Assembly: GCA_964606285.1 (NCBI GenBank)
Contig: CAZSFP010000001.1
Location: 133,376-197,375 of the forward strand
Direction: 5' to 3'
DNA length: 64,000 nt
Origin: an uncultured Candidatus Saccharibacteria bacterium
Lineage (GTDB): Bacteria; Patescibacteriota; Minisyncoccia; Phycocordibacterales; UBA9973
Each line of letters begins with the position of its first letter. Within the stretch, counting starts at the first letter, position 1. The notes beneath the pieces are model-generated. The model was not told where the DNA came from. It saw only the letters and a program-made list of their open reading frames with translations, and searched no databases. A program made the translations under genes and the position numbers. This document shows positions 3,716 to 46,149 of this stretch, one piece after another.

Positions 3716-3726
3716 TCTTGATTTTT

Positions 3727-3760
3727 AAATCTGCGCCATGGCTGAGATTTAAAAATTCGT
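3727..3760. repeat. imperfect palindrome TTTTTAAATCTGCGCCATGGCTGAGATTTAAAAA (GCCATGG-core family, copy 1)
   Basis: seen directly; overlaps the stop of the Cas2-fold gene. Confidence 0.7.
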
Positions 3761-4132: not shown

Positions 4133-4152
4133 AATAAATCTATTATATATAA

Positions 4153-4184
4153 TTTCTAAATGTGCGCCATGGCGCACATTTAGA
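4153..4184. repeat. 32-bp perfect palindrome TTCTAAATGTGCGCCATGGCGCACATTTAGAA (GCCATGG-core family, copy 2)
   Basis: seen directly; lies between the ogt-like gene end and the Cas2-fold gene start. Confidence 0.75.
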
Positions 4185-4205
4185 ATAAGTACTATTTATC
4201 GAATT

Positions 4206-9399: not shown

Positions 9400-9457
9400 T
9401 CACCCTTCCGTCTTTTTGATTACAAAAATCCACCTCCCCTTCGCAGGGGAGGAAAAA
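9400..9457. repeat. 58-bp inverted-repeat arm (left), partner of 11421..11478
   Basis: CACCCTTCCGTCTTTTTGATTACAAAAATCCACCTCCCCTTCGCAGGGGAGGAAAAAT; its reverse complement matches 11421..11478 with 1 mismatch; contains a terminator-like hairpin CCTCCCC-TTCGCA-GGGGAGG. Confidence 0.85.
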
Positions 9458-9460
9458 TTC

Positions 9461-10534
9461 TTACTTCACAATTCCCCCACCAAGACAAATTTCACCATCA
9501 TATATGACAACGGATTGTCCAGAAGAAATGAGTACAGGTTGTGAAAATGTAATATTGTCATTGGAGATAGTGCAATCAAAAAATTCTCCATGATAACGAA
9601 TTTGGGCTTGATACGATTTTGCAGGATCTGGAACTATTCGCTTATTCGCGCGAATAAGCGAATAGTTCGTCCGGGCTTTGGAAGATTCGTTTGGAGATAC
9701 ATGCGACACGGTAATCGTATTTTTTTCAATATCCTTTGCAATGACAAAATATCGAGGATCGTCACTTCCCTTTTTGGTAATCGTAAATCCGTGTCGTTCA
9801 CCAAGTGCAAAAAGAAATGCACCATCATGATGACCGATACTCTCGCCGGATTCATCAATAACATCTCCTGTCTTTGAAGAAATATAATGTTTGAGAAATG
9901 CCTTCATGTCGATTTCTCCGATAAAACACACACCCTGGCTATCCTTTTTTGTCGCAGTCGGCAAACGATATTTCTCTGCCAATTTCCGCACCTCTTTCTT
10001 TTCCAAATGACCTATAGGAAACAATATATGAGACAGATCATCTTGTGTTAGTGTCCAAAGAAAATAACTCTGATCCTTTGTGATATCCTTTCCCTTTTTT
10101 AATAAATATTTCCCAGAATCAATTTCATTTCTTGTATAATGCCCCGTGGCGATAAAATCTGCACCACGAGATTTTGCAAATTCCCAGAAAACACCGAATT
10201 TCACTTCTCGGTTGCACATAACATCCGGATTCGGTACGCGACCTGCACGATATTCGGCAATCATATAATCGGCAACACCCTTTTTATAAGCATCTTCAGC
10301 ATCACAATCAAGAAATGGGATTTGGAGATGGGCACAGACTCGCATTGCATCACGACGTTCATCACGCCATGTGCAGTCGATCCATTCAGGTGTCCAGGTG
10401 CGGATAAACACACCAACGACATCATATCCTTGATCTTTGAGGAGTGCCGCAGATACAGATGAATCAACACCACCTGAAACTCCGACAAACACTGTTTTTT
10501 TCTTTTGTTCCTGCGAAATCATATCCATAGTCAT
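9461..10534 (-). CDS. mnmA: tRNA-specific 2-thiouridylase MnmA
   Basis: PP-loop VGVSGGVDSSVSAALL; C-terminal VVIYDGEICLGGGIV typical of MnmA. Confidence 0.9.
   Translation of the reverse strand: MTMDMISQEQKKKTVFVGVSGGVDSSVSAALLKDQGYDVVGVFIRTWTPEWIDCTWRDERRDAMRVCAHLQIPFLDCDAEDAYKKGVADYMIAEYRAGRVPNPDVMCNREVKFGVFWEFAKSRGADFIATGHYTRNEIDSGKYLLKKGKDITKDQSYFLWTLTQDDLSHILFPIGHLEKKEVRKLAEKYRLPTATKKDSQGVCFIGEIDMKAFLKHYISSKTGDVIDESGESIGHHDGAFLFALGERHGFTITKKGSDDPRYFVIAKDIEKNTITVSHVSPNESSKARTNYSLIRANKRIVPDPAKSYQAQIRYHGEFFDCTISNDNITFSQPVLISSGQSVVIYDGEICLGGGIVK
9631..9668. repeat. 38-bp perfect palindrome GAACTATTCGCTTATTCGCGCGAATAAGCGAATAGTTC inside the mnmA coding sequence
   Basis: seen directly; shares the TATTCGCGCGAATA core with the 41516..41545 palindrome. 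Confidence 0.9.
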
Positions 10535-11420: not shown

Positions 11421-11478
11421 TATTTTTCCTCCCCTGCGAAGGGGAGGTGGATTTTTGTAATCAAAAAGACGGAGGGGT
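11421..11478. repeat. 58-bp inverted-repeat arm (right), partner of 9400..9457
   Basis: ATTTTTCCTCCCCTGCGAAGGGGAGGTGGATTTTTGTAATCAAAAAGACGGAGGGGTG; followed by two further related hairpins up to 11556. Confidence 0.85.
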
Positions 11479-11556
11479 GGTATTTGTTTGTGTGGTATTT
11501 TTTCACCCCCTCGGCTTTTCAGCCACTCCCCCTTCACAGGGGGAGAAAAATACAAT

Positions 11557-21394: not shown

Positions 21395-21537
21395 TTTGTA
21401 TTGCCTTATTATCTCACTTTCGCTACCTCATAAGGGCTTTTTTTGTTTTTAAATAACTATACCAATATCACCACACGTGATACTTCGTAGTCTTTACACA
21501 CAGTACTATTTTTTATTAAAAAGTCAAATATATAAAA

Positions 21538-21572
21538 TTCTATATCTACGCCATGGTGTAGATATAGAATTA
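21538..21572. repeat. palindrome AATTCTATATCTACGCCATGGTGTAGATATAGAATT (GCCATGG-core family, copy 3)
   Basis: seen directly, upstream of the 20681..21394 gene. Confidence 0.7.
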
Positions 21573-38533: not shown

Positions 38534-38818
38534 TTATTTTATGTTGAACGCAACACTGACGCCATCACCTTCCCAAATATCTTCCTTTTTGCGAACTTGT
38601 GTTTTTATGGACAACAGATATGCACCTGATTGCTTGTGCGGAAACAGAGATGTTTCCCATGTGACCGCACCAATAGTTGCTAAAATTTTCACAAATCCCT
38701 TGGGGTATGCTTTTCGAATATTTTCTGAAATCTCTTTTGGTACATTCACAAAATACCAACCCATGTCTCCCGGCCATCGCCATACTTTTGCTTTAAATAC
38801 AAAATTCTTTTTCTTCAT
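38534..38818 (-). CDS. DUF1905 domain protein
   Basis: WRWPGDMGWYFVNVP...TIGAVTWETSLFP...YLLSIK pattern of the DUF1905 family. Confidence 0.7.
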   Translation of the reverse strand: MKKKNFVFKAKVWRWPGDMGWYFVNVPKEISENIRKAYPKGFVKILATIGAVTWETSLFPHKQSGAYLLSIKTQVRKKEDIWEGDGVSVAFNIK

Positions 38819-38824
38819 ATGAAT

Positions 38825-39091
38825 TTATCTCAAAAAAACCTCAAGCGCTCCTTCACCACCATTATTGATCTTTGACTGATTGTATCTGACACCGTGCGAG
38901 TGCAAGTACGACCGGACAAAATCCGGGAGTACTGCACCACCAACACTGTGCCTACCTTTACCGACAATAATCCGAACAATGACATATTTCTTTTCTTTCA
39001 ACAAAGCATCCAAAATTTCTTTCGATTCTGCAGTCGTATACCCATGCAAATCTATTTCGATCTCCGCTTTTTGTTCGTATTTGTTTACCAT
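38825..39091 (-). CDS. Smr domain protein
   Basis: IDLHGYT...IVRIIVGKGRHS motif of the Smr domain. Confidence 0.75.
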   Translation of the reverse strand: MVNKYEQKAEIEIDLHGYTTAESKEILDALLKEKKYVIVRIIVGKGRHSVGGAVLPDFVRSYLHSHGVRYNQSKINNGGEGALEVFLR

Positions 39092-39102
39092 GACCGTATA
39101 AA

Positions 39103-39336
39103 TTATTTTTCTCCTGTATCATTTTCCAAAACAGTATCAATATAGAGTTCTTCTACTTTTGTCCGCGCCCACGGCGTTCGACGAAGAAATGTCAAACTAG
39201 ACGTGATACTCGGATTACTCAAAAAGCAATTGATCCGTATGCGGTTTCCCAATTCTTCAAATCCATACTGATCAACAAGATATGTCAGTATCATTTCGAG
39301 TGTTTTTCCTTGTAGAACATTTCGCGGATTGGCCAT
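39103..39336 (-). CDS. VF530/DUF2132 family protein
   Basis: TYLVDQYGFEELG...INCF..PSITSSLTFLRRTPWAR pattern. Confidence 0.65.
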   Translation of the reverse strand: MANPRNVLQGKTLEMILTYLVDQYGFEELGNRIRINCFLSNPSITSSLTFLRRTPWARTKVEELYIDTVLENDTGEK

Positions 39337-39354
39337 AATAAATAATGTTATATA

Positions 39355-39390
39355 ATAACATTCTCACATTCTTGAGAATGTTGGAATATT
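39355..39390. promoter_or_regulatory. ~38-bp palindromic operator-like element, copy A (AATAACATTCTCACATTCTTGAGAATGTTGGAATATT)
   Basis: One of three near-identical copies; centred on CATTCTTGAGAATG. Confidence 0.6.
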
Positions 39391-39670
39391 ACCATGAATG
39401 AATAAATTCACAGAACGATTTGCCGTATGGAGAAACGACATGTTTTACTGTTCGCCCGACATAATTTTTATTGAGTAATCCTGCCTGCACAAGACGTCGT
39501 GTATGTTCAGATAATGTCTTCATATTGCAGTTAAGTTGTTCTGAGAGATTTTCAAGTGTCACTCCTTGCTGTTTGTATACAAGTAACAATATAGAAATCC
39601 GCCAATGATTGGCGACACCTTTGAAATGTCGTTCGAATTGCTTTGCAATTTTTACCGTATCTTTTTTCAT
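39389..39670 (-). CDS. ArsR/SmtB-family winged-HTH transcriptional regulator
   Basis: HWRISILLLVYKQQGVTLENLSEQLNCNMKTLSEHTRRLVQAGLL HTH; start set at MKKDTVK so that the operator lies upstream. Confidence 0.7.
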   Translation of the reverse strand: MKKDTVKIAKQFERHFKGVANHWRISILLLVYKQQGVTLENLSEQLNCNMKTLSEHTRRLVQAGLLNKNYVGRTVKHVVSPYGKSFCEFIHSW

Positions 39671-39683
39671 ACTTCCAATATAC

Positions 39684-39717
39684 AACATTCCAATATTCTT
39701 GAGAATGTTGGAATGTT
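39684..39717. promoter_or_regulatory. palindromic operator-like element, copy B (CAACATTCCAATATTCTTGAGAATGTTGGAATGTT)
   Basis: Immediately upstream of the arsR-like start; near-perfect 30-bp dyad. Confidence 0.6.
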
Positions 39718-39734
39718 AATTGTATAGAGAGAAA

Positions 39735-39980
39735 TTATGAGACAGTGGAATCGGAAGGAGAAGAAGATTCAGGAGATGGAGCTGAATGAGATACCGGATG
39801 ATCAGGGATGACAAAGATCGCGATGATGTAAGTCAAGACACCAGGAACCAAGCCTGTAGCCAGGACAAAAAAGATAAAGATGATCCGCAGTAAAACTGGG
39901 TCAATATCAAAGTATTCCCCCAATCCACCCAGTATTCCCTGCCACACTCTGTTCGTTTTGCTTTTGTATAGTTTTTTCAT
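39735..39980 (-). CDS. PspC domain membrane protein
   Basis: LYKSKTNRVWQGILGGLGEYFDIDPVLLRIIFIFF is the PspC domain signature. Confidence 0.75.
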   Translation of the reverse strand: MKKLYKSKTNRVWQGILGGLGEYFDIDPVLLRIIFIFFVLATGLVPGVLTYIIAIFVIPDHPVSHSAPSPESSSPSDSTVS

Positions 39981-40039
39981 ATATCTATAGTATATCAAAT
40001 TTTACGATATTTTGAGTAAGCCCCAGAAAACAGCCCTGA

Positions 40040-40561
40040 TTAGAGTTTGCGAGAATCATATGCCCAATGAAGCAGTGCTTGTCGTTGGCGAGGACGGCAG
40101 TGTATATCGCCCGGTCGGCAGTGCGCCACGATTTGTCCGATATGGCGACGCATTGCCTTCCATCGCTTGATTTGTTTGCTGTCTTCTGCGGGAATTCTGC
40201 GACCCATATAATACCTGCAGTACCACTCGAACCATCCGCGAGGATCTTCTTTTGATATCCATCCTTTTGCTCGCCACACGGAAAGCGGTTGTGATGCATT
40301 CACACCAAAATAATTCAATTCTGCGAGATGTTTTGTTATACCCTTTGGTGCAAATTTTGCACGCGTAAACCAATCTGCAGGAAATTCCTTGACGCAATCA
40401 CGCATATAGACACCGCCGAACACTCCCAGTGCGAGCAGCTGCTTTGGAGTGAGATCAGGCTTGAATTCTGGATCAAACTGTTTCCCTATCGGTGCAACGC
40501 ATTCGTACCGATACCCTTTTTGCATTTTATTGTTGACGCGAATAATTCGTTTTGATGTCAT
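40040..40561 (-). CDS. hypothetical protein, atypically GC-rich (about 50% versus about 35% in the surroundings)
   Basis: 174-aa ORF (start set at MTSKRII); Trp/Arg-rich composition; no assignable domain. Confidence 0.45.
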   Translation of the reverse strand: MTSKRIIRVNNKMQKGYRYECVAPIGKQFDPEFKPDLTPKQLLALGVFGGVYMRDCVKEFPADWFTRAKFAPKGITKHLAELNYFGVNASQPLSVWRAKGWISKEDPRGWFEWYCRYYMGRRIPAEDSKQIKRWKAMRRHIGQIVAHCRPGDIHCRPRQRQALLHWAYDSRKL

Positions 40562-40599
40562 AAAAATAATTTTCAATATATCAATCCTTAAAAGAAACT

Positions 40600-40998
40600 C
40601 TAAAGATTTAAATATGTAATAGACAACTGGAGGACTGTCGCAAATGATACCCATCCAAGGTATGGGATATTTGCATACACGATCCAGTGTGCATGGGGCC
40701 ATATAGCAATCAGTGCCCAGATGAGCGTGCCGAGTACGAGGAGAATATCAATAGCAGCCAATAGATTGTTTTGAAGTCCAAACTGGAGTGGAGTGAAAGC
40801 AAAGTTGAAGATGAGATTGAGTACGAACGGCAATGCCACTATCCACGGAATCTGCTTTGTAAAAACTTTGTAAAATACTGTACCGAACGATAGCGCAATA
40901 ATCACATACAGTACCGTCCACACCGGCCCAAAAAGCCACGAAGGTGGTGCCCATGTCGGCTTGATAAGTTATGAGTACCAGTTGTATGTATTGTTCAT
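40600..40998 (-). pseudogene. tspO: TspO/MBR family protein interrupted by an in-frame TAA at codon 10
   Basis: ATG at 40998, then MNNTYNWYS-TAA(40969..40971)-LIKPTWAPPSWLFGPVWTVLY... continuing in the same frame into ORF 40600..40923; this matches the TspO N-terminal WY..L.KP.W.PP motif. Confidence 0.6.
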
Positions 40999-41016
40999 AA
41001 ATATAATTTTATTTTA

Positions 41017-41445
41017 TTATCCTAGTAAAAACACAAACGACAAGAGAAGTCCCCACCAAGAAAGAAACGATGTGATGAAAGAAAACACGATTTTAGTTTG
41101 GAGATTTTGAGGAAGGAGCTCTGTCGGACGATTTTCACGTTCACGACGAATAAGTTCTGGACTCACGACAAATGAGAGAAAACATCCGTTCAGAATCATG
41201 ATTCCCATAACCACAAATTTCCAGAGAGCGATATGCATACCTGATGCAGCGAGAAGTATATGTCCTACTATGACAAGCAGCATTCCAATCCAGATAAGCG
41301 GTTTGGTAACCTTGTGTGTACGGATCGTTGCCTCGGTCCAGTATCCAGACTTGCGACCCAAAAATCCATGGAGATCAATAACGGTCACCGCCCCAAGTCC
41401 GATCACAAATCCTGCCATTGTTAAAAAAATTGAAAGTGTGTGCAT
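41017..41445 (-). CDS. hypothetical multi-pass membrane protein (142 aa)
   Basis: Four hydrophobic helices. Confidence 0.5.
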   Translation of the reverse strand: MHTLSIFLTMAGFVIGLGAVTVIDLHGFLGRKSGYWTEATIRTHKVTKPLIWIGMLLVIVGHILLAASGMHIALWKFVVMGIMILNGCFLSFVVSPELIRRERENRPTELLPQNLQTKIVFSFITSFLSWWGLLLSFVFLLG

Positions 41446-41515
41446 AGATCACTAATTATATAAGAATGATTATATTGTAACAGAAAAATGAAAAGAAATA
41501 GTATGCTTATTGTTG

Positions 41516-41545
41516 TATTTACCTATTCGCGCGAATAGGTAAATA
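41516..41545. repeat. 30-bp perfect palindrome TATTTACCTATTCGCGCGAATAGGTAAATA
   Basis: seen directly; shares the TATTCGCGCGAATA core with the mnmA-internal palindrome. Confidence 0.85.
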
Positions 41546-41556
41546 GACACACCATC

Positions 41557-41596
41557 ATAATAACATTCTCATATTCTCAAGAATGTTGGAATATTT
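41557..41596. promoter_or_regulatory. palindromic operator-like element, copy C (ATAATAACATTCTCATATTCTCAAGAATGTTGGAATATT)
   Basis: About 92% identical to copy A; upstream of the 41017..41445 gene. Confidence 0.6.
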
Positions 41597-41604
41597 TTGT
41601 GGAT

Positions 41605-42522
41605 CTAACGGTAGGAAAGTTCTTTTTCGACACCGGCGGCAAAAGATCCGACGTTCGGGAGGCGGTCCTGGAGGAAGTACAATCCTTCGTTGAGTAATGT
41701 CAGATCTTTCCAGTGAATGATATCTTCTTTTGTTTTAAATTGAGAGAGAATACTTTTGCGATACCCAGAAATGTATTCAGTCCGTTCACTTGGTGACATG
41801 GTTCCTATCGCACCGATACTGAATTGCATAAATGGATCTGTCCGCATCAACGACACGACGTCGTCATCAGAAATTTCAGGAAAATGACTCACGTCGATCG
41901 ATGCACCAAAATCCACGAACCGCACGTCGCCGTCCGGTGTGAGAATGACATGGGATTTGCCAAAATCATTGGTTAACAACTGGTCATTGACCAAGATATT
42001 TTTTTCATGCAGTGCCTTGAGTGCTTTTCCAAATTTCTGTCCCAAGTCTTCCATAAACGCTGGTGTACAGATATCGGCTTCGAGATTGAGGAGCGGCGTG
42101 CCATCGACAAACTGTTCGTGCATCATGCCTTCCGGCGCCTTGTACTGCTCCGGTCCGATCCCCATGTCCGCCGCCGTCTGTGCAATAGATTTTTCCGCAA
42201 TTGATTCGAGTGGCTTGATGATCCGACTCTCATGTTCAAAAGACGCCTTGATGCCCGAACCGCGAGTCGGTGCCGACAATTTCGTTATCAACGGTTTCCC
42301 TTCCGGCATATCTGGCGCCTGTCGAATTCTTGATTCTAAATGTAAATACGAAAGATATGCGGCATATTCTTTGGGATATGTCGCCTTCAATTCTTCTGTG
42401 CTCATCGCAAGTAATGCTTCACGAACCGATTCGGACTGGATTCTCCCCTTGAAAAAATGCTCCGATCGGCCGAGTTGAGCATCCAATTCCTCCGGTGTTT
42501 TCGATTTTCCAAATGATTCCAT
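41605..42522 (-). CDS. protein-kinase-like fold protein (atypical or possibly inactive), GC-rich
   Basis: LHEKNILVNDQLL catalytic-loop-like segment followed by VDFGAS (DFG); about 50% GC. Confidence 0.4.
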   Translation of the reverse strand: MESFGKSKTPEELDAQLGRSEHFFKGRIQSESVREALLAMSTEELKATYPKEYAAYLSYLHLESRIRQAPDMPEGKPLITKLSAPTRGSGIKASFEHESRIIKPLESIAEKSIAQTAADMGIGPEQYKAPEGMMHEQFVDGTPLLNLEADICTPAFMEDLGQKFGKALKALHEKNILVNDQLLTNDFGKSHVILTPDGDVRFVDFGASIDVSHFPEISDDDVVSLMRTDPFMQFSIGAIGTMSPSERTEYISGYRKSILSQFKTKEDIIHWKDLTLLNEGLYFLQDRLPNVGSFAAGVEKELSYR

Positions 42523-43070: not shown

Positions 43071-44123
43071 TCATGGAGATAGTCTCATTGACGTTAATCC
43101 ACCATTCTTACAGTTATCACATAATCCATTATCAGCAAAGACGGATGTTGGGCTATATACATAAGCTCTCAGACAATTCCTACAAGATCTTGCTGAAATT
43201 GATATAGGATTTACAGTTTGAAATGATTCGGACAATCTAATATCTGTATTCATGATCGAATTCCTTAAATCTGTAGTTTTTAGTACTGCAGGAGAATTAT
43301 TAAGGATAATGGGGTTCGCAGATTGTAATGAAACCAATGCGTTCTCATAATCTACACTGAAAACCCCTGAGGATTGATTCCTCTTCTCTTCAAATTGCTC
43401 AATGGTTTGTTTTTTGTATCCAGCAGAGAAATTCTTATTTAACATTTTCAGTGGATCGAAGTAATAACTAACATCTTTGAATAAAGTCTGAATACTAGTT
43501 GCTAGAATTAAATCATCTCGATTTTTAATCTTTGGATTTTCGGTAAAATCAAAAATATTACCGGTACTAAAAAATAATTCATAATCTTTTTTGTTTTCCA
43601 AGTATTTAACGACCGAAGCAATAATCAAACAGTCTGGCTGTATGTTTTCGTAATTTTTTTTCTCACCCGTAGATTTCTTATAAGGCTTACTTCCTTTTAG
43701 GAACATACAGTAGGCCTGAGTTAAAGCTTCAGGAGTTAGCCTTAAATCATCTCGGATAGTATTAGGGTGTTCAAAAATACTTCTAACATCTTTTTTAATT
43801 TTTTGAATCTCTTTTAAGGTAGTTTCCTTGCCTTGCTGAATTGATTTGGTTAAATTATCTTTAGCTTTTTTGCTTCCGATTGTATTGCTCTTTTGAATAA
43901 TTGTAACCAAATCATTCGCTTCATTATTTATCAACTCAATCTTTTCATTAAACTTTCTTTCAAATTCAAGTTCTATTATTTCCGGTAAAAGAAGTTTAAA
44001 TTTGTTTGCATTTAACAACTTGTTAATTTTTTCTAAAACATCATCACTATTAAATTCAAGATCTAAAAAACATAGGTGTATATAAATATTTGAGTCTATT
44101 AAAACAAATTTTTCTTTTTTCAT
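43071..44123 (-). CDS. PIN-like nuclease domain protein with C-terminal CxxC-x17-CxxC zinc ribbon
   Basis: N-terminal FVLIDSNIYIHL (first PIN acidic residue) and later DCLIIASV; C-terminal CRNC...CDNC. Confidence 0.55.
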   Translation of the reverse strand: MKKEKFVLIDSNIYIHLCFLDLEFNSDDVLEKINKLLNANKFKLLLPEIIELEFERKFNEKIELINNEANDLVTIIQKSNTIGSKKAKDNLTKSIQQGKETTLKEIQKIKKDVRSIFEHPNTIRDDLRLTPEALTQAYCMFLKGSKPYKKSTGEKKNYENIQPDCLIIASVVKYLENKKDYELFFSTGNIFDFTENPKIKNRDDLILATSIQTLFKDVSYYFDPLKMLNKNFSAGYKKQTIEQFEEKRNQSSGVFSVDYENALVSLQSANPIILNNSPAVLKTTDLRNSIMNTDIRLSESFQTVNPISISARSCRNCLRAYVYSPTSVFADNGLCDNCKNGGLTSMRLSP

Positions 44124-44130
44124 ATATTAA

Positions 44131-46149
44131 TTATAGATCTTCTAAAACTCTTACTACGACTGCTTGGACGATCATTTCTTCATTCTCAGTAAACTTCATG
44201 GGCTGGTGTTTTGGATTTGTGGAGCAAGGCTTTAATACAACAACCCCATTTTCTCTATAATACTCTTTTATTGTAGCATCCTCGCCAATAAGTGCGACAA
44301 CTCTATTCCCTATTTCTGGATGATAATTTTTACGGCACAAGACGAGGTCTCCATCATTTATCCCTGCTTTATTCATGGAATCTCCAGTAGTACGAAGTAC
44401 AAAATATTTTGAACCTTTAGAAATATATTCTACTGGAACATCTATCATTTCCTGAACGGTAGAGTCCGCAAACATCAATTCCCCGCAACCAGCCGAATCA
44501 AAAAGCGGAAGCTTTACCATCTGGCCAGCATATGGAGACTTTATTATTTTTGAAGTAATTTCTTTTTTAATGGATGTAACTTCTTTATTTATTATTTCAT
44601 TAAAATAATCTCTCAAACCTTGATCAACGATATAAATATAAGTTCCTTTTATACCGCGAGTTAACAATGTTTTATAAATATTTATTACATATCTTTCAAG
44701 TTCATTTGGGTCAGTAATGCCATTTCTACCATTTATATCAAAATATTTCTCACGATCAACTTTAAATTTTTTATTTACAGGGTCATATGAAAACTCAGGT
44801 CCAATAATAACCCCAACATAGTTCAAATCATAACCTTGAACTGTATGTATACAACCAACTTCATTTATAGCATTGGGTGAATTAACCCAGTCTTGAGCAA
44901 CGGAATTCCAGACCAATTTCAAGTCACCTATTTCAATATCATAATCACGAGTTCCCTTTGCGGTGTGCCATGGCCACGCATAACCAGCAACAACGCGGGC
45001 CAATTTATGCTTTTTGTCTTTTTCTTTAATTTCACTAACCATTTGCTCTGCATTATCGAATATTTTAAAATCATAATTTGAGAAACTTGTATTTTGGGGT
45101 ATTTTTAAATCAAAAATGTCTTCAATAAATTTAATGTACTCTTCGCCTGCTTCAACACGCATCTGAGAATTCAATTCATATTTTTTAGCATTTAATTTTC
45201 TAAAATCTTCAGGACGAATATCAGCTGGTTTTATACTTTGATTTTCATCATAAAAGAAAATTTGGTTTTTTGACGACTTCATAATCCAATCAAGTTGTGT
45301 GCCATTATTATCCAAACCAAGTCCCCGACTTACATTATCAAAAGCTCCATAACCCATAATACCTTTTCGTCTTTGTAGTCTATGTGATTCATCAACAATC
45401 AATAAGTCATATTTATCTTTTACAACATCATTTGGACCAATAACCATATTTGATTTTAATCCTTTTATTTTAGAAAAAACTCTAGCAATTGTTTTTCTAA
45501 GTGAGGCCATTGGTACAACAAGACCAATATTCATATTTTTTGTTTCTTCCTGTTCTTTGAGGTATTTAAAAAGATATGTAGCTAAAATTGTTTTACCTGT
45601 ACCCGGTTTACCATTTACAATAAAAGTATTGTATTCATTCTTTTTTATATCCTTAAAAATCTGTCTAGCGACAGTAAACTGATCTTCTGTTAGAGACTTG
45701 TATGGTGAGTATTTAAATAAATCACTATTTTTTAAATCCTCGAGAGTATTTTTTACTAAACCCATCTGTCGTAAATTTTCCCAAGCTATTTCAAACTTTG
45801 CTTTGTACTTTACCTTGTCGTAATAATTATGATTCTTTAAACCCCCATTACTATTCTGTAAAATAAACTTTTCGTCAGCAGAAATATACTGAATTAACCA
45901 AGACTCGATATCAAAAGCGGCAGAAATGTTAAATTCTTCATCAGTAATAATATGAATTTCTTTTAACTTCGCTCTTTCCGGATTTTCATAATGTTGCTTA
46001 CTTCGAAAATAAGCGTTCACTGTTTGACCAATATAAACTTCCTTCTTGTCTTCTAAAATGTAAACAACAGGCCAATTTTTACCAAATTTAAAATTCTTAA
46101 TTTGATCAAAATCCTCTCTATTAAATGGAAAAGTTTTTATTTCAGACAT
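44131..46149 (-). CDS. three-domain fusion: GIY-YIG nuclease + DUF2075-like SF1 helicase-type P-loop NTPase + LexA/UmuD-like S24 peptidase
   Basis: GIY-YIG: VVYILEDKKEVYIGQTVNAYFRSKQH...E. NTPase: Walker A GKPGTGKT, DExH-like LLIVDESHRL, IHTVQGYDLNYVGVII. S24: candidate Ala-Gly cleavage site (DSAG/CG) about 35 aa upstream of TGDSMNKAGINDGDLVL...TIKEY (Ser/Lys dyad). Confidence 0.7.
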   Translation of the reverse strand: MSEIKTFPFNREDFDQIKNFKFGKNWPVVYILEDKKEVYIGQTVNAYFRSKQHYENPERAKLKEIHIITDEEFNISAAFDIESWLIQYISADEKFILQNSNGGLKNHNYYDKVKYKAKFEIAWENLRQMGLVKNTLEDLKNSDLFKYSPYKSLTEDQFTVARQIFKDIKKNEYNTFIVNGKPGTGKTILATYLFKYLKEQEETKNMNIGLVVPMASLRKTIARVFSKIKGLKSNMVIGPNDVVKDKYDLLIVDESHRLQRRKGIMGYGAFDNVSRGLGLDNNGTQLDWIMKSSKNQIFFYDENQSIKPADIRPEDFRKLNAKKYELNSQMRVEAGEEYIKFIEDIFDLKIPQNTSFSNYDFKIFDNAEQMVSEIKEKDKKHKLARVVAGYAWPWHTAKGTRDYDIEIGDLKLVWNSVAQDWVNSPNAINEVGCIHTVQGYDLNYVGVIIGPEFSYDPVNKKFKVDREKYFDINGRNGITDPNELERYVINIYKTLLTRGIKGTYIYIVDQGLRDYFNEIINKEVTSIKKEITSKIIKSPYAGQMVKLPLFDSAGCGELMFADSTVQEMIDVPVEYISKGSKYFVLRTTGDSMNKAGINDGDLVLCRKNYHPEIGNRVVALIGEDATIKEYYRENGVVVLKPCSTNPKHQPMKFTENEEMIVQAVVVRVLEDL

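Follow-up and report, generated by a model that had tools for sequence, protein, structure and literature searches.

The locus and its three palindromes

A gene for a small winged helix-turn-helix (wHTH) regulator, accompanied by three copies of a long palindrome, lies within a 64,000-nucleotide stretch of the genome of an uncultured Candidatus Saccharibacteria bacterium (contig CAZSFP010000001.1, positions 133,376 to 197,375), hereafter the window. From 38534 to 42522 every gene is on the minus strand, so that each palindrome follows one gene and precedes another. In the direction of transcription, the features are a gene for a protein of 305 amino acids (aa), copy C, genes for a 142-aa membrane protein, TspO, a 173-aa protein and a PspC-domain protein, copy B, the regulator gene, copy A, and genes for VF530, Smr and DUF1905 proteins.

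The palindrome follows a consensus of 34 nucleotides (nt), which even with up to three mismatches matches only copies A, B and C in the window; the same three are the only exact matches to a generalised 28-nt pattern, ATTC-N4-ATTCTYRAGAAT-N4-GAAT (ATTCNNNNATTCTYRAGAATNNNNGAAT). The 34-nt pattern had no match in 100 shuffles, and none is expected by chance, which rules out a chance repeat as the origin of the three copies. An earlier first-pass annotation, made from the sequence alone, had described the three copies at these places, with A and C about 92% identical and B a near-perfect dyad, and all of this holds: compared over 39 nt with their flanks, A and C show 92% identity and have the non-core flanks ATAATAAC and ATT in common, and copy B pairs at 15 of 17 positions. 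The dyads are real, but the common centre proposed for them, CATTCT(T/C)(G/A)AGAATG, was too general, since CATTCT is found in copy A only, B and C reading TATTCT, and the dyad centre is TTGA in A and B and TCAA in C.

A divergent regulator with an ArsR/SmtB fold

The regulator has more than 500 homologues of 60-72% identity, and the few of these that carry a source name come from Paceibacterota, Nomurabacteria, Uhrbacteria and Portnoybacteria. Its recognition helix, KTISEHTRRLVQAGL, is invariant in an alignment of 24 homologues, which also places the start codon at 39670, giving 93 aa, and not at the alternative start of the open reading frame (ORF) list at 39688 (99 aa). Among the sequence profiles, Pfam MarR exceeds its cut-off (27.3 versus 24.6 bits) with a match limited to residues 31-74. 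The curated ArsR-type profiles all score below theirs (Pfam HTH_5, 18.9 versus 22 bits; Pfam HTH_20, 24.3 versus 27; NCBIfam HTH_metalloreg, 33.1 versus 55), which marks the regulator as a divergent branch of the ArsR/SmtB superfamily. An AlphaFold2 (AF2) model with a predicted local distance difference test score of 88.8 has the element order of that superfamily, α1-α2-α3-αR-β1-β2-α5. Its top Foldseek match is HlyU, aligned over the full length with a template modelling (TM) score of 0.87 and 26% identity; SmtB, SqrR, CzrA, CadC and NolR also match at full length, the whole set spanning TM 0.76-0.87 and the best four (HlyU, SmtB, SqrR and CzrA) TM 0.8-0.87.

Members of the MarR family are about 140-150 aa long and have N- and C-terminal dimerisation helices around the wHTH. 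Membership of this family was rejected on the length of 93 aa, a profile match covering the helix-turn-helix only, and the merely partial alignment of MarR structures to the model (target-normalised TM about 0.5, root-mean-square deviation 8-12 Å). By its modelled structure, the regulator is thus an ArsR/SmtB-fold wHTH protein where sequence profiles stay ambiguous. The ArsR-family label of the first-pass annotation stands as a statement about fold, but not as one about sensing: none of the conserved sensor residues looked for (an α3N CxC, an α5 DxHx10HxxE metal site or an α2/α5 Cys pair) was found in the 24-sequence alignment. No Cys is invariant there; Cys47 and Cys88 are frequent, each being replaced in several of the 24 homologues independently of the other, and the invariant histidines are His56 in the recognition helix and His77 in the wing. 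A role as a metal or redox sensor is not supported.

The upstream site and probable negative autoregulation

Regulator loci were sampled through the protein alone, without use of the DNA motif, which gave 80 metagenome loci, 71 of them unique. A palindrome lies upstream of the regulator in 68 of the 71 unique loci, and its commonest end is 16 nt before the ATG. This is also the arrangement in the window, where the start at 39670 leaves copy B 16 nt upstream of the ATG, directly before the gene as had been claimed, but without the claimed overlap with its start. The sequence here runs GAAT-GTTG-TATATT-GGAAGT-ATG, with a -10-like hexamer 4 nt past the site and 6 nt before the start codon. Within 8 nt after the upstream site, a match of at least five of six positions to TATAAT is present in 40 of 68 loci, compared with 8 of 68 on the far side of the same sites; in 28 loci the TATAAT-like hexamer starts at +4 of the site, and in 28 it ends 6 nt before the ATG. 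The succession of site, 4 nt, hexamer, 6 nt and ATG, the modal arrangement, suggests a leaderless or near-leaderless promoter.

Protein and site also vary together. Where the sites flanking the regulator are centred on TGCA, all four regulators have Lys, Ala or Ser in place of the second Arg of HTRRL, a replacement seen in none of the 63 others (Fisher p = 1.7e-5); in three lineages ACTC/GAGT units replace ATTC/GAAT, and all three regulators carry KTAS instead of KTIS (p = 7.6e-5). The covarying residues are located in the recognition helix and are matched to the altered operator bases, and a testable recognition code can be proposed in which Arg59 would read the dyad centre and Ile53 the ATTC unit. 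The symmetry of the sites is in keeping with this. The two arms of a regulator-flanking site resemble each other to the same degree as different sites of one genome do, and no more (33% versus 35% perfect), which is the pattern expected from protein specificity alone; a hairpin constraint was rejected for these sites and is seen in the dispersed copies only.

Taken with the wHTH fold and the upstream palindrome in 68 of 71 loci, this covariation makes binding and negative autoregulation through copy B the best reading, one that is well supported in silico. The earlier proposal that the ArsR-like protein binds the dyads and controls itself therefore stands at that level for copy B; its extension to two neighbouring transcription units is taken up below.

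In two loci (L177:5324-5351 and L180:2350-2377), an extra TGCA-centred palindrome lies 57 nt past the 3′ site of a regulator with the canonical HTRRL, which suggests a second, paralogous specificity class in the same genome.

The site at the regulator's stop codon

In 67 of the 71 unique loci, a further palindrome lies against or across the stop codon of the regulator, at offsets of -16, -7 or +1, and is kept whichever gene comes next. Three registers occur: the site may begin 1 nt past the stop, the TAA may lie within ATTC-TAAC-ATTC, or the TGA may itself be the dyad centre, in which case the regulator protein ends in QHS. Copy A has the first of these, starting 1 nt after the TAA stop; TATATAA comes next, and the ATG of the VF530 gene lies 23 nt from the site. 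In the window, copy A could thus serve as the operator-promoter of the VF530 unit, whose three genes have clear Pfam matches (E-values of 1.6e-30 for VF530, 2e-12 for Smr and 4.9e-24 for DUF1905) and occur in the same order in a relative, L001. The more likely general role of the stop-codon site would be to gate transcription out of the regulator gene, by roadblock and/or hairpin.

Copy C, neighbouring genes and the regulon question

The positions of the three copies, the regulator and the surrounding genes are collected in Table 1.

Table 1. Palindromes, promoter element and genes discussed in the text, in window coordinates
Feature	Position	Strand	Remarks
305-aa gene	41605..42522	(-)	No family match; stop precedes copy C
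Copy C	41562-41595	(-)	Lineage-specific copy; exact pattern match
Second palindrome TATTTACCTATTCGCGCGAATAGGTAAATA	41516..41546		Between copy C and membrane-protein gene; predicted RNA hairpin -16.4 kcal/mol
Unit between C and B	39735..41445	(-)	Membrane protein, TspO, 173-aa protein, PspC-domain protein
142-aa membrane protein	41017-41445	(-)	
TspO	40600-40998	(-)	Pfam TspO_MBR, 6.4e-26
173-aa protein	40040-40561	(-)	
PspC-domain protein	39735-39998	(-)	Pfam PspC, 9.2e-19
Copy B	39684-39717 (28-nt core 39687-39714)	(-)	Proposed autoregulatory operator, directly upstream of regulator gene; exact match
-10-like hexamer TATATT	39677..39682	(-)	Promoter scan: TTCTCA-17-TATATT, 39705..39677
Regulator gene	39389..39670	(-)	93 aa; predicted ArsR/SmtB fold, HlyU-like
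Copy A	39357-39390	(-)	Second site, at 3′ end of regulator; exact pattern match
Downstream unit	38534..39336	(-)	VF530 39103-39336, Smr 38825-39091, DUF1905 38534-38818
Perfect 38-bp palindrome GAACTATTCGCTTATTCGCGCGAATAAGCGAATAGTTC	9633-9670		Inside mnmA, 9461-10534 (-); ATTC-N4 unit plan as in operator

The 28-nt core of copy C begins 12 nt after the TAG stop of the 305-aa gene and lies 119 nt upstream of the membrane-protein gene, with better -10 elements (TGTTACAAT and TATAAT) in between and nearer to the gene. The four-gene unit of membrane protein, TspO, 173-aa protein and PspC-domain protein is shared with L001, but neither copy C nor the adjacent GCGC palindrome is present at the orthologous junction of L001 and L003, which have a 96% identical regulator. 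This absence, together with the flanks in common with copy A, marks copy C as a recent, lineage-specific copy.

Clustering of the genes that neighbour 155 unique sites and 74 regulator loci led us to reject a conserved local regulon, as the regulator alone recurs and the next largest family is found in 8 of the 74 loci. A DNA-damage regulon, considered because of neighbours such as VF530, Smr, MazG-like, SLFN-helicase-S24 and MGMT-like proteins, was likewise rejected, the association being too sporadic. The first-pass claim that the regulator controls two neighbouring units is therefore weakly supported at best: the neighbours vary, copy C is missing from a relative with a 96% identical regulator and is 119 nt away from the start it was held to govern, and copy A is fixed to a stop codon. 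Control of the membrane-protein gene by copy C is the weakest part of the earlier model.

Two observations concern the neighbourhood itself. The TspO gene has an in-frame TAA at codon 10 (40969-40971; MNNTYNWYS*LIKPTWAPPS), where the close relative L001 has Thr (MKTYNWYSTLIKPTWAPPS). The gene may be a pseudogene or may restart from the GTG at 40923, or else the stop is an error of assembly. Further upstream, the minus-strand gene at 44131-46149 encodes a protein of 672 aa in which an SLFN group-3 helicase domain is joined to a LexA-like S24 peptidase at the C-terminus; a PIN_12 protein (43071-44123, minus strand) lies next to it. Homologues of the helicase-S24 protein, often together with a MazG-like gene, neighbour the regulator in seven other loci (e.g. 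L004 and L007).

Dispersed copies across Patescibacteria

An exact-pattern scan of one genome per species returned at least 120 stretches with the palindrome and, among the matches listed, almost all are from Patescibacteria lineages. The regulator is present in only about 20 of about 114 site-bearing Patescibacteria blocks among these matches, from which approximately five dispersed exact copies per genome can be derived as a rough estimate; on this estimate, the motif is low-copy and is not a repeat of the repetitive extragenic palindromic (REP) kind. The first-pass annotation had regarded occurrence at many unrelated loci as the mark of a generic repeat. The element does occur at many loci, but with few copies per genome and in co-evolution with the regulator, so that a cognate binding motif fits better than a generic repeat.

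Many dispersed copies abut stop codons, and seven lie in tight convergent gaps. Runs of four or more T within 12 nt on at least one side accompany 46% of the dispersed intergenic copies and 23% of control positions. Long ORFs contain 24 copies, of which 20 share a single reading frame (peptide HSNILENVGM), and the genes that bear them include those for TsaD (twice, in the same loop), MnmA, TGT, MurD, a PurL-like protein, a class-V aminotransferase and HsdS. The two tsaD genes (L039:434-461 and L110:2904-2931) belong to distant Patescibacteria, and in both the loop that follows the HxEGH motif contains the exact palindrome, in frame; it is absent from a third tsaD, that of L201. Extra sites within 5 kb of the regulator resemble the flanking sites in being imperfect. 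In L128 (1393-1437) and past the regulator stop in L131, a tandem 8-nt unit, ATTCTAAC, in at least five copies adjoins the regulator-linked palindrome, which indicates that the unit of 8 base pairs (bp) can expand.

Proposed mechanism and the points that weigh against it

We consider it probable that the 93-aa ArsR/HlyU-like protein binds these palindromes and represses its own gene through copy B, copies A and C being roadblock-type sites. The protein would act as a dimeric DNA-binding protein of ArsR/SmtB (HlyU-like) fold, with a cognate site of 28-34 bp in which four ATTC/GAAT units are set 8 bp apart around a TYRA centre. Copy B would span the -35 and spacer region of the regulator's own, probably leaderless, promoter, and protein bound there would occlude RNA polymerase, so that the regulator gene would be negatively autoregulated. 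Copy A would most likely limit transcription that passes from the regulator into VF530-Smr-DUF1905, or that starts there, by roadblock and/or hairpin. Copy C, presumably acquired recently as a dispersed copy after a stop, is likelier to be a roadblock- or terminator-type site than a promoter operator. From in silico evidence on sites, conservation, fold and covariation, we infer the binding, the sign of regulation, the roadblock role and any effector.

Several observations weigh against this reading. At the upstream promoter the match to a -35 element is poor. TTGA and TCAA centres are about equally frequent there, so that the site is not oriented relative to the promoter; for the same reason, the dyad centre was rejected as an oriented -35 element. 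A -10 hexamer placed as at the upstream site is found in only 10 of 67 downstream copies, and a function of copy A as the operator of the next gene is thus not general. The covariation statistics ignore phylogeny and may represent two or three independent events. The neighbour genes are not conserved, as described above. The dispersed copies, in turn, lie in 43 tandem, 18 convergent and 6 divergent contexts (n = 67 classified, 22 sites unclassified), against 554, 103 and 90 background gene pairs, which puts the convergent copies at about twice expectation on context classes that are uncertain, being drawn from crude ORF calls (longest ORFs, at least 45-80 aa). Perfect palindromes make up 63-83% of the intergenic dispersed copies and 50% of those flagged as intragenic, compared with 31-33% of the sites flanking the regulator. 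Eight of the ten longest site-bearing ORFs are real genes by Pfam, with the palindrome in frame. Copies at gene ends, between convergent genes and within genes imply that the element is more than a promoter operator, and the prevalence of perfect dispersed copies implies a second mode of existence, in which perfect symmetry is favoured, either by selection or by a mechanism that generates the copies. The dispersed copies may serve as a protein roadblock, a bidirectional terminator or a cruciform.

A wider, more speculative reading takes up these points: a phylum-wide Patescibacteria system may exist in which a minimal ArsR/HlyU-type protein and its palindrome act genome-wide and not in the manner of a classical promoter switch; at gene ends and within housekeeping genes (tsaD, mnmA, tgt, murD and others) the protein would be a roadblock, a terminator or a factor that handles cruciforms, with new perfect copies being generated and spread and with TYRA, TGCA and possibly GCGC specificity classes diversifying alongside. 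We put it forward only tentatively, and believe it rather doubtful as a whole.

Alternative explanations

The palindrome might instead be a self-propagating or copy-generating element similar to REPINs or to Rickettsia palindromic elements (RPEs), with the wHTH as its bracketed partner, A and C as products of recent duplication and regulation as a secondary matter. Such an element would account for the identity of A and C extending into non-core flanks, for the absence of C from a relative with a nearly identical regulator, and for the bracketing of the regulator in nearly all genomes; the higher share of perfect palindromes among intergenic dispersed copies than beside the regulator, their positions directly past stops and between convergent genes, and the single frame of most intragenic copies are also as expected of it. 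We nevertheless judge it unlikely. Copy number is very low on the rough estimate given above, no linked transposase or nuclease was found, and the 93-aa wHTH is non-catalytic, with no catalytic domain detected by Pfam or in the AF2 model. The phylum-wide core and the invariant recognition helix point to long-term selection for binding, and the palindrome in mnmA of the window apparently arose in place from a quasi-palindromic coding stretch.

That the palindromes act as RNA, forming 3′ hairpins that terminate transcription or stabilise mRNA, with their proximity to the regulator incidental, appears improbable to us. Copy A does overlap the end of the regulator gene and copy C closely follows a stop; hairpins are predicted for A (-16.5 kcal/mol) and B (-14.9 kcal/mol) with z of about -4.7, and T runs as well as convergent gaps are enriched around dispersed copies. 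A terminator stem, however, needs neither a phylum-wide sequence nor covariation with a recognition helix, and the upstream copy precedes the -10 element and would not be transcribed from that promoter. No U-tract follows A, B or C, copy C folds weakly (-8.1 kcal/mol, z = -2), and the ordinary terminators of the window are GC-rich stems flanked by A and T tracts, whereas the stems here are AT-rich; a terminator scan found no intrinsic terminator at any of the three copies, and no Rfam match at E ≤ 1 overlaps the palindromes between 37000 and 44000.

Repression of the regulator by DNA looping between the two flanking sites, as at gal OE/OI or lac O1/O2, is very improbable: two sites do bracket the gene in 67 of 71 loci, most commonly with a start-to-start spacing of 327 bp (13 loci and the window), but the spacing ranges over 307-415 bp without helical phasing (307, 315-316, 327, 331, 349 and others), and a phase-locked loop was rejected since the spacing is not fixed.

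Other palindromes and repeats in the window

As for the GCGC palindrome beside copy C, ATTCGCGCGAAT occurs eight times in 1.35 Mb of fetched DNA, other GC-centred variants occurring once or not at all, and in four of the eight cases it is 43-48 nt from a canonical ATTCTYRAGAAT core (window 41516-41546, L016:757, L082:1870 and L131:2137). A paralogous regulator may bind there, or the palindrome may form a companion hairpin.

The perfect palindrome inside mnmA codes for NYSLIRANKRIV, in frame between the M and C domains of MnmA, and has a predicted hairpin of -24.8 kcal/mol. In three relatives with MnmA proteins 62-80% identical (L209-L211), the stretch of the same length found here is no more than quasi-palindromic, and in the alignment a canonical palindrome of the operator type stands at this place in L097. 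An origin by insertion was rejected because the segment in the relatives is equally long and quasi-palindromic, which looks like evolution in place. Around this gene, 58-nt inverted repeats that are 98% complementary (9401-9458 and 11422-11479) enclose a 1963-nt segment with mnmA and a 257-aa gene without family match; the segment may be invertible or mobile. A separate family of palindromes of about 32 nt, TTCTAAATGTGCGCCATGGCGCACATTTAGAA and variants, has three copies at 3721-3757, 4151-4185 and 21536-21569, and is a candidate operator of a different regulator.

Relation to known systems and significance

The closest structural likeness of the regulator is to HlyU of Vibrio, a non-metal ArsR/SmtB wHTH that is also a small dimeric α1-α5 protein and the best full-length structural match; in a sequence search of the Protein Data Bank, Phr (2p4w) ranked first (E = 1e-3) and HlyU second (E = 0.006). 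HlyU binds an inverted-repeat or palindromic element able to extrude as a DNA cruciform (PMC10325908), and this is the closest precedent for a protein of the present fold acting on long perfect palindromes. The two differ in that HlyU counters silencing or activates transcription at a few virulence loci and uses a Cys pair for sensing, while the regulator described here has a Cys47 and a Cys88 that are neither invariant nor co-conserved, occurs phylum-wide in Patescibacteria, has a site of four ATTC units and has its gene bracketed by two sites.

The classical repressors SmtB, CzrA, CadC and ArsR are autoregulated through an AT-rich imperfect inverted repeat of about 28 bp (12-2-12) that overlaps the promoter of their own operon. 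The regulator shares their fold; unlike them, it has no α3N or α5 metal site, no adjacent metal-resistance gene and profile scores below the cut-offs, and the system has, in addition, a stop-codon site as well as scattered copies elsewhere in the genome. Phr, the heat-shock regulator of Pyrococcus furiosus, is a wHTH protein that represses its own and a few other genes via a long palindromic promoter site, but this archaeal protein of 202 aa extends into a long coiled coil at its C-terminus and matches the regulator over about 55 residues only. REP/REPIN elements and the RPEs of Rickettsia are palindromes scattered at gene ends; REPINs lie on both sides of their cognate RAYT gene, and RPEs also occur in frame inside genes, features that recall the bracketed gene and the gene-end and in-frame intragenic copies seen here. 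Such elements require a Y1 transposase and reach tens to hundreds of copies in a genome, whereas here there are three copies in 64 kb, roughly five dispersed copies per genome and a non-catalytic wHTH partner. A final comparison is with HrcA-CIRCE, likewise a pair of regulator and operator, in which the palindrome has been kept between very distant lineages and is both a DNA operator and an RNA hairpin; HrcA is from another protein family and the chaperone regulon of CIRCE is fixed, while no conserved target genes were found here across the 155 sites and 74 loci.

On sequence and modelling grounds, the present system appears to work like, and is predicted to fold as, an autoregulated repressor of the ArsR/SmtB family. 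Distinctive with respect to what is known are the phylum-wide conservation of both partners, the four-unit site, the bracketed gene with its stop codon in a site, and the dispersed perfect copies, including intragenic ones. None of the papers searched mentions the motif or a Patescibacteria regulator of such a kind, and the regulator-palindrome pair, conserved across Patescibacteria (the candidate phyla radiation, CPR), seems to be undescribed.

Patescibacteria have tiny genomes with very few transcription factors and, to our knowledge, almost nothing is known of their gene regulation. A regulator that is 60-72% identical across many lineages is here paired with a defined site and a simple, testable recognition code, which, if true, would open transcription control in uncultivated bacteria to direct study. 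The bracketing of the gene, the stop codon inside a dyad and the extra perfect copies are relevant to the way in which transcription units are ended and insulated in compact genomes, and the same layout bears on the origin and persistence of long perfect palindromes.

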